A stretch of 64,000 nucleotides of DNA from an uncultured virus (IMG/VR IMGVR_UViG_3300043256_000236) (IMGVR_UViG_3300043256_000236:1-64000); one strand, 5' to 3'. Counted from the stretch's first letter, positions 44,285 to 54,498 are shown. The notes: a model not told the origin generated them from the letters alone. Made by a program: numbers and translations.

Positions 44285-44926
44285 ATGCCAAAATTAGTCG
44301 ATTTAATTGGGCAAAGATTTGGAAGATTGCTGGTAATAGAACCTCATTATAGTAGCAAATACAAAAGAGTTCTATGGCTATGTCAGTGTGAATGTGGGAA
44401 AGAAAAAATTGTTTTGGGTTATAATCTCAAAAGTGGCAATACACAAAGTTGCGGGTGTTTAGGTAAAGAAGGAAATCATGCAATACACGGTCACCATAGA
44501 AGAGGGAAAGCAACCAGAGAGTACAAATCATGGGCTTCCATGAAAGAACGATGCACTAATCCCAACCACAAATATTGGAAGAATTATGGTGGTCGTGGAA
44601 TTACGGTTTGTAAGAAATGGATGGAATTCTCTAATTTCCTTATGGATATGGGAGAAAGACCTTCAGGATGTACGCTCGAACGGATAAAAAACGAAAAGGG
44701 ATATTTTAAAAAGAATTGCTATTGGGCAACACGAAATCAACAACAGAGAAACACACGAAGGAATCTCTATGTTTCATACGCAGGGGAACGATGGCTTTTT
44801 ATAGAATTGTGTGAAAAATTTAATATGCCTCGTCAACTTGTGTATGGTAGATATTATGGGCTCTATTGGACTCTGGAAGAAGCCCTAATAACCACCGTTG
44901 GGGAAAAGAGAAAAAGAAATGATTGA
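44285..44926 (+). CDS. free-standing HNH-family homing endonuclease-like protein
   Basis: DLIGQRFGRL, WLCQCECG, SCGC, YGGRGITVC, TLER..N..GY...NC.WA. Confidence 0.8.
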   Translation: MPKLVDLIGQRFGRLLVIEPHYSSKYKRVLWLCQCECGKEKIVLGYNLKSGNTQSCGCLGKEGNHAIHGHHRRGKATREYKSWASMKERCTNPNHKYWKNYGGRGITVCKKWMEFSNFLMDMGERPSGCTLERIKNEKGYFKKNCYWATRNQQQRNTRRNLYVSYAGERWLFIELCEKFNMPRQLVYGRYYGLYWTLEEALITTVGEKRKRND

Positions 44927-47403: not shown

Positions 47404-47755
47404 GGGGCTGAAAGGTTTCGACAGGGTAAGTGAAGATTATGTGGCGTGCCGAGGTTGTCAGTGGGCCTCGTTAAACAACTGATAAAAAAGTCTTAAACGG
47501 CGAATCCAAGTTCAAATTGGCTGCGTAGCAGCCCGTCAACCAGAAGACGCCTACTATTCTGCAAGACGACGACCAGTTGGCTAGTGTTTGTTTGATACCT
47601 AACCGAATTAACGCGAAACAATAGTTGGGCATGGAAAAACAAAAGCCTGTCGATTGGCGTTTGTGGCTTCGAGATTTAAACAATCGAATATGCACGTAGA
47701 AGGCATGATTTAATCTATTCCTGGACCCGACTTTCGAAAGTCGGCAGCTCCACCA
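47404..47755 (+). ncRNA. ssrA: tmRNA, tag (A)GESKFKLAA*
   Basis: GGGGCTG...TTCGAC 5' end; CAGCTCCACCA 3' end with G3:U70; PK1 CGAGG/CCTCG; tag ends LAA. Confidence 0.92.
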
Positions 47756-47834
47756 GGGCAGTTAGTTCAATAGGTAGAACGCAACCCAGCAGGACCAAGG
47801 GTTGAGGTTGTAGGTTCGAATCCTTCACTGCCCA
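47756..47834 (+). ncRNA. tRNA-like RNA with enlarged (11-13 nt) anticodon loop
   Basis: GGGCAGT/ACTGCCC, GTTC/GAAC, CAACCC/GGGTTG around AGCAGGACCAA, GGTTCGAATCC. Confidence 0.7.
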
Positions 47835-49503: not shown

Positions 49504-49782
49504 ATGCCATATATTCCAAGGGAGGACAGGGCCGTTTATGATGATGACATCAATAGTTTGGGTTCATCATTAGATTGCTTGTCCAATGACCAGTTAGCCG
49601 GTCATCTTAACTATATCTTTTTCCGTCTGGCAGGCAGCATGTGTACTGGAGATGATATGTCGTATGCAAGAGCTGCCGTTGTTTCATCTGCTCTTAGTGA
49701 AGCACAAGCTGAATTCCGTCGTAGGGTTATGGCTCCTTATGAAAATGAAAAAATCAAAGAAAATGGGGATATTGAATTTTGA
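49504..49782 (+). CDS. conserved phage hypothetical protein
   Basis: MPYI...G.LNY...EF.RR..APYE..KI.ENGD. Confidence 0.65.
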   Translation: MPYIPREDRAVYDDDINSLGSSLDCLSNDQLAGHLNYIFFRLAGSMCTGDDMSYARAAVVSSALSEAQAEFRRRVMAPYENEKIKENGDIEF

Positions 49783-49786
49783 TATT

Positions 49787-49859
<73 letters not shown>

Positions 49860-49863
49860 TTTA

Positions 49864-50015
49864 GGCGACGGTTTTTGTGTTTATTTTGTTGGGGCAGCAC
49901 ACGACAGGTAGTCGGCTGAGGCGGGGTGTCCCTAAAACCGCCAAGTCCAGATATTATGGACCTATGGACTAAAGTCACAGACAGGGGGCCGCTGGTCGAA
50001 TCCAGCCCGTCGCTA
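49864..50015 (+). ncRNA. tRNA-like RNA (acceptor stem and T-arm) with a pseudoknotted insert
   Basis: GGCGACGG/CCGTCGCT-A, GCTGG-TCGAAT-CCAGC, internal GGGGCA/TGTCCC and GGCGG/CCGCC. Confidence 0.55.
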
Positions 50016-50043
50016 TTGTATTGGCAACTAAAAGGAGAAAGAT

Positions 50044-50349
50044 ATGTTAAGGTTAGTGTTTGGAAAGCAAAATATCGCCATTAAGTTTTATCATAAAAAA
50101 TTAGAGGCTAAAGAGATACTGGATATGCATGGTGCGCGAGTAGATGGACCTCGTAGATGTACTATGGCTAGAATAAGCTTTGATGGAGAAAAGGCAGATG
50201 ATACATACGGACTATCTGTGTGTAATCCAGTGGATAATTTTAATAGATCTATTGGACGTGAAAAGTCGCTAGCAGATTGTCTGAGGAGATTCGACAAAAG
50301 GCTAAGGAGTAAAGTCTGGCAAGAATATGAAGTGCAATTTGGTTTTTAA
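50044..50349 (+). CDS. hypothetical phage protein
   Basis: AAGGAG RBS; CNPVDNFNRSIGR motif. Confidence 0.6.
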   Translation: MLRLVFGKQNIAIKFYHKKLEAKEILDMHGARVDGPRRCTMARISFDGEKADDTYGLSVCNPVDNFNRSIGREKSLADCLRRFDKRLRSKVWQEYEVQFGF

Positions 50350-51830: not shown

Positions 51831-52118
51831 ATGGCAAAAACTACTGTTGTTAATATTCGTACAAATAAATATGATGTGTATATCGGCAGGGCGGGATATG
51901 GTCATGATGGTTATTTTGGTAATCCTTTCTCGGTAATAAGAGATGGTGGTCGAGAAAACGCTGTTCGCTTGTATAAGGAATATTTTCTCAATCGTATAAA
52001 AATCGATCCAGAATTTGCTCTTAAGGTTCAAGAGTTGAAAGGAAAGAAGCTTGGGTGTTTTTGTGCTCCTGAGCGATGTCATGGTAATGTGATTATTGAA
52101 TATTTGGAGAAATTATGA
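51831..52118 (+). CDS. DUF4326 domain protein
   Basis: YDVYIGR, FGNPF, LKGKKLGCFCAP..CHG. Confidence 0.85.
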   Translation: MAKTTVVNIRTNKYDVYIGRAGYGHDGYFGNPFSVIRDGGRENAVRLYKEYFLNRIKIDPEFALKVQELKGKKLGCFCAPERCHGNVIIEYLEKL

Positions 52119-52462
52119 AAGTGTTAGTGTGTGGTAGTCGTTATTGGATCGATATAGAAATTATACTAAAACGACTAGATAAGCTTCCTTGTGATACAAT
52201 AATAGTAGAAGGAGGATGCTGTGGAGCTGACCTTCTGGCACGTAACGTAGCATTGGAGATCGGCTTAGAAGTGATTGAGTTTCCAGCATCTTGGAAAAAA
52301 CATGGTAAAGCTGCCGGTATAATACGAAATTTTAGAATGCTAGAGACAAAACCGGAATTAATTATTGCTTTCCATGATAATATGGCTAAGTCAAAAGGGA
52401 CAAAACATACAGTATCAGAAGCTCGTAAAGCTGGAATTGAAGTTGAGATAATTAGTCATTGA
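52115..52462 (+). CDS. SLOG-family (YspA/DUF2493-like) protein
   Basis: VLVCGSR, EGG..GAD.LA, W..HGKAAG..RN..ML, SKGT. Confidence 0.85.
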   Translation: MKVLVCGSRYWIDIEIILKRLDKLPCDTIIVEGGCCGADLLARNVALEIGLEVIEFPASWKKHGKAAGIIRNFRMLETKPELIIAFHDNMAKSKGTKHTVSEARKAGIEVEIISH

Positions 52463-53848: not shown

Positions 53849-53862
53849 ATAGGAGTATGGAT

Positions 53863-54498
53863 ATGAAATTGATCGATTTGGTAGGGAAAAGATTCGGAAG
53901 ATTGGTTGTCCTGAAAAGAGTCGATGATGATAAAAATAAAAACAGGAGATGGTTATGTCTGTGTTACTGTGGTAAAAAGAAAATTGTTCATGGCAGCAGC
54001 CTTTATGCTGGCAGAACAAAAAGTTGTGGATGTTTACAGAAGGAAATAGTGAGAAAACTGTTCACTAAACATGGGCACAGTAAATGTGCAATCTACAACA
54101 TATGGGCAAGCATGAATCAGAGATGTATCAATCCAAACAACAAAGAATACCACAATTATGGTGGAAGAGGAATTAATGTCTGTAAACGATGGAGAAATTC
54201 GTTTCCTAATTTTTTAAAGGATATGGGAGAACGATCAAATAAAAAATACACACTTGAAAGAACTAATAACAATCGGGGATATTGTAAATCTAATTGTGAA
54301 TGGGCGACATCGAAACAGAATAGCAGGAATAGGCGAAACAACAGGCCATTAACCCATAACGGTAAGACACAACTTCTAATAGAATGGGCTGAAGAAACCG
54401 GGATCGATAGACAAACTATTGCTACAAGAATAGATAGATACGGGTGGTCTATAACAAAGGCTTTGACGACTCCTATCAGAAAGAAGAAAAATTTATGA
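53863..54498 (+). CDS. free-standing HNH-family homing endonuclease-like protein (paralog of 44285)
   Basis: DLVGKRFGRL, WLCLCYCG, SCGC, YGGRGINVC, TLERTNNNRGY...NCEWA. Confidence 0.8.
   Translation: MKLIDLVGKRFGRLVVLKRVDDDKNKNRRWLCLCYCGKKKIVHGSSLYAGRTKSCGCLQKEIVRKLFTKHGHSKCAIYNIWASMNQRCINPNNKEYHNYGGRGINVCKRWRNSFPNFLKDMGERSNKKYTLERTNNNRGYCKSNCEWATSKQNSRNRRNNRPLTHNGKTQLLIEWAEETGIDRQTIATRIDRYGWSITKALTTPIRKKKNL

Follow-up and report, generated by a model that had tools for sequence, protein, structure and literature searches.

What kind of gene occupies a tRNA slot in the tRNA cluster of a phage when its ends fold like those of a tRNA and its center does not? We addressed this question for a 152-nucleotide (nt) RNA encoded by the uncultured virus IMGVR_UViG_3300043256_000236. 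The stretch of DNA analyzed, here called the window, comprises the first 64 kb (positions 1-64000) of a 122.9-kb record whose completeness is estimated at 74%, and the only DNA run listed for it bears the label marine sediment metagenome. A preliminary description of the window had proposed a tRNA-like RNA with a pseudoknot, resembling one in transfer-messenger RNA (tmRNA), in place of the D and anticodon arms, and had regarded it as an undescribed mini-tmRNA-like or decoy RNA. Our comparison of homologues supports the view that the RNA is a real, conserved, structured and non-coding gene, upholds most of the anatomy first proposed for it, and revises parts of its fold.

Conservation and Covariation of the RNA

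Nine distinct homologous sequences, that of the window included, were available after identical copies had been removed. They were 135-173 nt in length and 54-99% identical, and all were from uncultured phage or metagenome contigs. Unless stated otherwise, the pair counts given below were made on the alignment of these nine sequences (A9), fitted to covariance model R2. The 42 proposed pairs were paired in 93.9% of cases compared with 83.2% in column shuffles, a value that none of 500 shuffles reached, and in a control in which the partners were slid only 25-46% were paired. Twenty-two pairs had changes in both partners, as compared with an average of 9.0 in the shuffles (0/500). The minimum free energy (MFE) fold of the window sequence already contained the acceptor stem, the T arm, GGCGG/CCGCC and CGAC/GUCG, and the energy of the nested consensus fold in the window was -49.1 kcal/mol versus -51.9 for the MFE fold. 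Judged by covariation, the RNA is structured to a greater extent than chance would produce, and it is very probably a real structured RNA gene with the fold described here.

The short frame ending in TAA that had been pointed out within the RNA exists in the window but is not conserved among the nine sequences. This frame stops after 5-17 codons in six of them and never in the other three, the peptides are unrelated, and the lengths of the homologues differ by non-multiples of three. From its sequence the RNA is not coding.

Architecture of the RNA

The coordinates of the RNA and its parts are given in Table 1. Its start was borne out: it begins 4 nt past the discriminator A (49859) of tRNA-Met(CAT), the upstream tRNA-fMet of the preliminary description. 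The proposed 8-bp acceptor-like stem followed by an unpaired A was also present, with 98.6% of cells paired and four of the eight pairs changing on both sides. The discriminator was A in seven sequences and G in two, i.e., a purine in all nine, and the trailer began with UU in eight. No CCA is encoded at the 3′ end of the RNA, as is also the case for the phage's own tRNA-Met. Pair 3:70 was C-G in eight sequences and U-G in one, so the absence of G3:U70 that had been noted for the window extends to the whole family (0/9), while pair 2:71 varied among the homologues. The T arm, described correctly as having a 6-nt loop in the window, had all five pairs formed in every sequence, one of them compensatory. 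Its loop was UUCGAAU, of the canonical 7 nt, in L094, L102, and L097, and AUCGAAU in L112. The designation of the RNA as tRNA-like holds.

Directly after the acceptor stem is a D-like arm, whose stem is 5-7 bp and whose loop, 10-14 nt long and 11 nt in six of the sequences, has the consensus NNUUGUURGGG. As A9 mis-registers the 5′ strand of this stem, the stem was counted by script: five pairs were paired in 45/45 cells and four of the five changed on both sides, the variants including GUGCC/GGCAC, GUACC/GGUAC, GUGUC/GACAC, GCAUU/AGUGC, and GCACU/AGUGU. Since a D-like arm is present by position, the title of the preliminary description was only half right. The helix UUUGUG/CACAGA, which had been described as a connecting helix, was complementary in the window sequence only, its columns on A9 being mostly gaps or unpaired. 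Its 5′ half instead belongs to the covarying D-like stem and its 3′ half to a small variable hairpin.

At the anticodon position all nine sequences have a hairpin of 4 bp with a loop of 4-5 nt, rather than the 5-bp stem and 7-nt loop of a tRNA anticodon arm. This hairpin, the CGAC/GUCG already recognized in the window, was 100% paired, and three of its four pairs were compensatory. An outer helix, GC(A/G)GC/GCUG, drawn around it by RNAalifold was rejected, as it conflicts with the better-supported D-like stem and by inspection fails in L098 and L102. The inner domain that follows contains two further hairpins that had been identified correctly. The stem GGCGG/CCGCC of hairpin 2 was 100% paired, with one of five pairs compensatory and C-G replaced by U-A in two of nine sequences; the GGUGUYC of its loop was invariant, partly because the search patterns demanded it. 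Hairpin 3 (AGUCCA/UGGACU in the window) was found in all nine sequences as a stem of 4-7 bp of differing sequence, with five of its six pairs compensatory on A9, and every loop had GGACC. The invariant single-stranded motifs of the inner domain are GGUGUYC, GGACC, and AAAG.

The inner domain is closed by a pseudoknot, which the preliminary description had correctly typed as H-type but had given the wrong partner strand, an upstream GGGGCA in place of the GGGGC just before the T stem. The order of elements is hairpin-2 5′ strand, loop strand, A-rich crossing loop, hairpin-2 3′ strand, spacer and partner strand, with the spacer being about 42-70 nt and holding hairpins 3 and 4. The pseudoknot helix was 100% paired over six pairs, three of which changed on both sides (GUCCC/GGGGC in the window; GUUCCC/GGGAAC, GUUCCC/GGGGAC, GUUCCG/CGGAAC, and GUCCU/AGGAC elsewhere), and its 3′ strand was in no search pattern. 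The energy of the duplex in the window is about -10.6 kcal/mol. A single pyrimidine separates the 3′ strand from the T stem and is U in eight sequences and C in the window. The alternative GGGGCA/UGUCCC helix, possible in most members, was 88.7% paired on A9. It is made up of invariant G's and many G-U pairs and shares bases with the D-like stem, and when it was counted jointly with the connecting helix the result did not exceed shuffles (46/500, 77/500). The covariation indicates that the hairpin-2 loop pairs much more convincingly with the GGGGC 5′ of the T stem than with the upstream strand.

Table 1. Positions in the window of the 152-nt RNA, its structural parts and neighboring genes.
Feature	Position	Strand	Description
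Whole RNA gene, 152 nt	49864-50015	+	G1 to unpaired discriminator A
Acceptor stem, 5′ strand GGCGACGG	49864-49871	+	Pairs with 50007-50014; 8 pairs
D-like arm	49876-49901	+	Stem UGUGUU (49876-49881)/AGCACA (49896-49901); 14-nt loop with conserved UUGUUGGGG
Hairpin 1, CGAC-AGGUA-GUCG	49902-49914	+	Anticodon-arm position; 4-bp stem, 5-nt loop
Hairpin 2, GGCGG/CCGCC	49920-49942	+	Strands 49920-49924 and 49938-49942; loop holds GUCCC (49928-49932) and UAAAA
Hairpin 3, AGUCCA/UGGACU	49944-49970	+	15-nt loop with conserved GGACC (49958-49962)
Hairpin 4, GUC-ACA-GAC	49974-49982	+	Small, variable; longer in L092, L105, and L098; absent in L102 and L097
Pseudoknot 3′ strand GGGGC	49985-49989	+	Pairs with GUCCC 49928-49932; followed by C 49990, then the T stem
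T arm, GCUGG-UCGAAU-CCAGC	49991-50006	+	6-nt loop
Acceptor stem, 3′ strand CCGUCGCU and discriminator A	50007-50015	+	UU follows
tRNA-Met(CAT)	49786-49860	+	Context gene; ARAGORN; Rfam tRNA 68.5 bits
Canonical one-piece tmRNA	47404-47755	+	352 nt; Rfam 124 bits; G3:U70; CCA encoded
tRNA, 79 nt	47756-47834	+	Rfam 58 bits; overlooked by ARAGORN
101-aa open reading frame, Acb4-like small protein	50044-50349	+	Directly downstream of the 152-nt RNA

Homologues and Database Searches

Synteny with the RNA ligase gene led to a 166-kb phage, whose ligase is 66% identical and which has a related RNA directly after its tRNA-Met. A 161-kb phage came from a first pattern scan. When a covariance model built from the first three RNAs was run against 80 sources (79 loci around DUF6899 genes and the window), it yielded a fourth. 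In two more pattern scans, five of eight viral stretches were real and ten of 14 metagenome stretches were strong model matches. The motifs in the search patterns were UUGUURGGG and GGYGGGGUGUYC; the helices were not in the patterns. Model R2 separated the members cleanly, giving them full-length matches of 87-165 bits, with the next best score among 89 sources being 12.4 bits.

The homologues always lie inside a tRNA cluster and on the tRNA strand, with one copy per record in the five phage records that carry the RNA. The RNA directly follows a tRNA in four of the nine distinct sequences (the window, L094, L097, and L102), a short open reading frame (ORF) intervenes in L105, and in the remaining four another non-coding stretch precedes it. 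The RNA is retained where flanking proteins fall to 33-66% identity and is absent from one complete related phage that retains the flanking genes, a distribution more in keeping with an accessory gene than with a leader.

The other non-coding stretch is itself conserved. It is ~135 nt in length, sits between tRNA-Met and the small RNA in four contigs (L092:1345-1482, +; L107:1280-1420, -; L112:1280-1420, -; L098:1561-1700, -) and is absent from the window. Three hairpins with compensatory changes (e.g., GCGGU...ACCGC versus GUGGU...ACCAC) were apparent in it, and it had no Rfam match at E<=1 in the four contigs.

Several candidates were discarded. Weak model matches at L022, L069, and L080 were to tRNAs or coding sequence, L096 (16.6 bits) is a GC-rich stretch without a T arm, and L095, L099, and L008 are chance pattern matches within coding DNA. 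A match in a Ferrimonas genome (L117, 27.3 bits) consisted of a terminator and coding sequence with no tRNA call, and a second match in G002 was a pair of adjacent tRNAs. When one genome of each prokaryotic species was scanned, three pattern matches emerged, none of them real, and a scan of viral contigs with a 3′-half pattern gave seven new loci, again none real. In the cultured-phage collection only the tRNA-Met part was matched, and the 152-nt query returned 22 short matches at E ~6.

The claim that the RNA was undescribed was upheld by these searches, since no homologue was found in cultured phages or representative genomes and no known family was matched in Rfam; a match of that kind is what the preliminary description had named as a refutation. 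No Rfam family was found at gathering scores, at E<=10 over 49700-50150, or at E<=1 on the relatives, and nothing resembling the 152-nt RNA was found in the literature searched. The family is thus uncatalogued in the sense of being absent from Rfam, although the motif could already be listed in the tables of a catalogue from 2023 that covers about 10,000 candidate structured RNAs of viruses (PMC10690425). A seed alignment and a model now exist for this RNA family.

Genomic Setting

The RNA locus, which a near-identical 165.5-kb contig carries base for base, lies in an island of tRNA, RNA-repair and translation genes that extends from 44.9 to 56.3 kb. The island contains an NAD-dependent DNA ligase, a tmRNA, an Rnl2-like RNA ligase, a DUF6899 protein, tRNA-Met(CAT), the 152-nt RNA, ten more tRNAs, an Rnl1-like ligase and two HNH endonucleases. 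ARAGORN and Rfam identified at least 11 tRNAs, and the GC content is ~41%. The structural genes are highly divergent, no close cultured phage was found for them, and the phage is not T4-like.

The canonical tmRNA lies 2.1 kb upstream of the 152-nt RNA and was overlooked by ARAGORN. A tmRNA is present in three of the five records carrying the small RNA; homologous tmRNAs are at the equivalent position in two related phages and not in a third, complete one (G001), which has the small RNA without a tmRNA. A 79-nt tRNA begins on the base next to the CCA of the tmRNA in the window, and its anticodon stem closes a loop of 11-13 nt instead of 7 nt. Within this loop is AGGACCA, a motif that is also conserved in the loop of hairpin 3 across the small RNA family. 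No counterpart of this tRNA was found in four related records, and a 14-nt identity to it in G003 falls in coding sequence.

Paralogous HNH endonuclease genes (44285-44923 and 53857-54498, both +), which match phrog_374 at E 2e-67 and 1e-72, respectively, bracket the tRNA/RNA-ligase island. Just upstream of tRNA-Pro are two adjacent small ORFs (51831-52118 and 52115-52462, +) with a DUF4326 and a YspA/SLOG-type domain, each matching only portions of longer PHROG profiles. Related phages have a 155-aa ORF between the RNA ligase and the DUF6899 gene (L003:5213-5680 and L005:312-779), which from its appearance may encode a macro (ADP-ribose-binding) domain; the window is without this ORF.

The protein encoded directly downstream of the RNA belongs to a large family (2340 matches at E<=0.001) and its predicted structure is confident (pLDDT 86.9). 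Its likeness to the anti-CBASS protein Acb4 of phage SPO1 is borderline, with a Foldseek probability of 0.87 at E 0.16 and a profile E of 0.048, and distant family members have weak matches to Pfam Rv2632c-like and Phage_gp49_66. No match to the protein was found in the cultured-phage collection. The protein itself gives no information on the RNA.

Proposed Processing and Function

We hypothesize that the 152-nt RNA is a tRNA-scaffolded, stable non-coding RNA of an uncatalogued family, processed like a tRNA but non-decoding, and serving as a tRNA mimic. As a whole, this is the best explanation available to us, and we see its chances of being right and wrong as evenly balanced. In the fold that the comparison of homologues supports, the 8-bp acceptor stem is stacked on the T arm and accompanied by a D-like arm with a conserved GGG in its loop. 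A short capped hairpin takes the position of the anticodon arm, and a compact domain of two to three hairpins, locked by the H-type pseudoknot, that of the variable arm. The RNA would be co-transcribed with the neighboring tRNAs; no convincing promoter or terminator was found nearby, which is weak evidence for co-transcription. Its 5′ end would be cut by the host RNase P, its 3′ end trimmed by the pathway for tRNAs lacking an encoded CCA before CCA is added, and the product would likely accumulate, tRNA-like, as a stable RNA. RNase P does process pre-tmRNA and pseudoknotted tRNA-like structures (PMC11143913). Excision in the manner of a tRNA is, in our view, probable.

Without a 7-nt anticodon loop the RNA cannot decode, and the tRNA half is for that reason most plausibly a scaffold and a handle for a tRNA-binding factor. 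The half formed by the acceptor stem, T arm and elbow may be recognized by a tRNA-binding protein, with the pseudoknot domain giving specificity or blocking catalysis, so that the RNA would act as a decoy or adaptor within an island for phage translation protection and RNA repair. The earlier suggestion of a decoy RNA is a reasonable guess. A mimic or decoy function is favored because the neighborhood holds a tmRNA, tRNAs, two RNA ligases and the Acb4-like gene, and because phage tRNAs have been proposed to counter tRNA-targeting defenses (PMC10264068), but we put it forward only tentatively.

A more specific proposal, which we think unlikely, is that the RNA is a tRNA-scaffolded effector whose tRNA half secures RNase P processing, CCA addition and stability. 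The pseudoknot domain would then make it either a trap that binds, with high affinity, a host immune enzyme directed at tRNAs (e.g., an anticodon nuclease or an acceptor-end-modifying toxin), or a chargeable, anticodon-less tRNA that donates its amino acid outside normal decoding. If true, it would represent a new class of phage counter-defense or translation-hijacking RNA.

Several observations weigh against the hypothesis of a tRNA-scaffolded, tRNA-like RNA. The alignment was fitted to a model that carries most of the proposed structure, which favors the nested helices. The folding energy of the single sequence is ordinary (z = -0.87; 41/200 shuffles folded equally well), and so the question of structure beyond chance is decided by the comparison of homologues. 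The family is small, with two of its nine distinct sequences 99% identical and three at least 90% identical, and because two loop motifs were in the search patterns, their invariance in later members was partly imposed. The tRNA-like core is loose, as the linker from the acceptor stem to the D-like stem varies from 1 to 5 nt; the D-like stem is longer than that of a tRNA; and the T loop is 6 nt in five of nine sequences. No gene for a TROVE protein, SmpB or a CCA-adding enzyme was found in the 122.9-kb record, nor was a binding partner. Decoy action on an enzyme would also need high abundance.

Alternative Explanations

An RNA of this shape might instead be charged by a synthetase that ignores the anticodon, as a reduced tmRNA-like or otherwise aminoacylated non-decoding RNA, and act on stalled ribosomes or donate an amino acid outside the ribosome. 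Consistent with this, its 5′ and 3′ ends come together as an acceptor stem and T arm like those of the tRNA-like domain of tmRNA, it has an H-type pseudoknot with an A-rich crossing loop, and a single base lies between the T stem and the adjoining helix, as for helix 2a in the Rfam tmRNA consensus. The strict maintenance of acceptor pairing, the constant purine at the discriminator, and the presence of the small RNA in G001, which has no tmRNA, could be read in the same way. However, G3:U70 is missing from all nine sequences, neither a resume codon nor a tag or stop is conserved, no family of the Rfam tmRNA clan matched at E<=10, and ARAGORN in tmRNA mode returned nothing for any of the nine, even at a lowered threshold. 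This is why the label mini-tmRNA-like was dropped. In addition, the discriminator and pair 2:71 vary, leaving no fixed identity set and arguing against one fixed synthetase, a canonical tmRNA is nearby in this phage and in two relatives, and the 122.9-kb record is without SmpB. We regard aminoacylation of this kind as distinctly improbable. Another candidate is a cis-acting element of the Acb4-like gene. Here the RNA would have no function in trans and would serve as a leader or tRNA-like processing signal, either fixing the 5′ end of the mRNA or regulating translation. Such an arrangement is suggested by the 17-39 nt that separate the end of the RNA from an ORF with a strong ribosome-binding site, by the absence of any terminator-like site between them, and by the intact ORF of the same family that directly follows the RNA in seven of the nine distinct homologues (the eighth case is L107, where this reading frame opens downstream without being intact). 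Yet another gene lies between the RNA and this ORF in G004, and in G005, a complete genome, and G007 the ORF follows a tRNA or other gene without the small RNA. An ordinary tRNA would, moreover, suffice for punctuation, yet the pseudoknot domain is conserved with compensatory changes. Since the gene family occurs without the RNA or separated from it, the RNA is not a leader of the downstream gene, and we hold a cis role to be quite unlikely.

That the locus is a tRNA with an intron, the pseudogene remnant of a tRNA or tmRNA, or a set of chance hairpins would be compatible with its tRNA slot in the array, with the unexceptional folding energy and with the intron-containing tRNAs that ARAGORN proposes at a lowered threshold. 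These calls were not consistent, as the eight with an intron named five different amino acids and the intron sites and spans differed among the nine sequences; at the default threshold nothing was called in eight of nine. Every helix covaries far above shuffles and slid controls, and the RNA is conserved across phages with proteins that are 33-66% identical, so we view this explanation as very improbable. HDV-like “theta” ribozymes occur in gut phages, and a self-cleaving ribozyme that shapes the 3′ end of the preceding tRNA would account for the start 4 nt after that tRNA and for the pseudoknot inside. Against this, a search of 49700-50150 at E<=10 detected no Rfam ribozyme family, the 5′ end as read from the sequence is base-paired to the very 3′ terminus beside the T arm, which is not HDV-type nesting, and four of nine homologues are preceded by a non-coding stretch and not directly by a tRNA. 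A ribozyme is, on this evidence, scarcely to be expected.

Comparison with Known Systems

The resemblance of the RNA to tmRNA (RF00023) lies in the acceptor stem and T arm formed from its ends, in the H-type pseudoknot with an A-rich loop and in the helix one base before the T stem. It differs from tmRNA in having no G3:U70 pair, tag frame or model match, in its length (152 nt versus 352 nt for the tmRNA of the phage), in its stem-closed D-like arm where tmRNA has an open D-loop, and in that the pseudoknot itself abuts the T stem. By sequence comparison the small RNA is not a tmRNA. Nor, by the same measure, is it a tRNA with or without an intron: the tRNA model RF00005 had no match to it and found only the neighboring tRNA-Met, and ARAGORN gave no consistent tRNA call.

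Class II tRNAs, tRNA-Sec and allo-tRNAs have an 8/5 or 8/4 acceptor/T geometry, a long D stem and a long variable arm. The small RNA is similar to these in the 8-bp acceptor stem and 5-bp T stem of most of its members, in its 5-7-bp D-like stem, and in its large insert at the position of the long variable arm, which is followed by a single pyrimidine like Y48. In contrast to them, it has no 7-nt anticodon loop, its D-like loop is about 11 nt, and its “variable arm” is a pseudoknotted domain of several hairpins. YrlA (RF02553), a Y RNA of bacteria and phages with a tRNA-like module, is likewise non-coding and imitates a tRNA top half, but its ends form a Ro-binding stem and not an acceptor stem. 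RF02553 had no match at the locus and the 122.9-kb record yielded no TROVE/Ro60 gene; the small RNA is not YrlA. The engineered “tRNA scaffolds” used for recombinant RNA rest on the same principle as its tRNA half.

The nearest analogue is the species 1 RNA of phage T4 (rnaC; 139 nt, NC_000866 70908-71046), which lies two genes after tRNA-Arg and is labeled in the record as “small, stable RNA”. Since T4, the tRNA clusters of phages have been known to contain partly tRNA-like small stable RNAs of unexplained purpose, and to our knowledge the function of the T4 species 1 and 2 RNAs is still unknown. Like rnaC and rnaD, the 152-nt RNA is a small RNA gene on the tRNA strand of a phage tRNA cluster, only a few bases past a tRNA, and it shares with rnaC paired ends, a canonical T arm before the 3′ strand and long hairpins that replace the decoding arm. 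In its MFE fold, by contrast, rnaC is closed by a weak stem and extends a rod-like arm, with no D-like arm or such a pseudoknot, and neither T4 RNA was homologous to model R1 (rnaC scored 7.2 bits at E 0.21 with filters off, which is background level). If the 152-nt RNA were indeed a trap or an amino acid donor, it would offer a first handle on the role of the T4 species 1 and 2 RNAs. The RNA adds a new variant to this poorly understood group of small, tRNA-like RNAs from the tRNA clusters of phages. With its defined fold it is a clean example among them, validated by comparison, and its placement in an island of translation rescue and RNA repair makes the role of such RNAs directly testable on a small construct.

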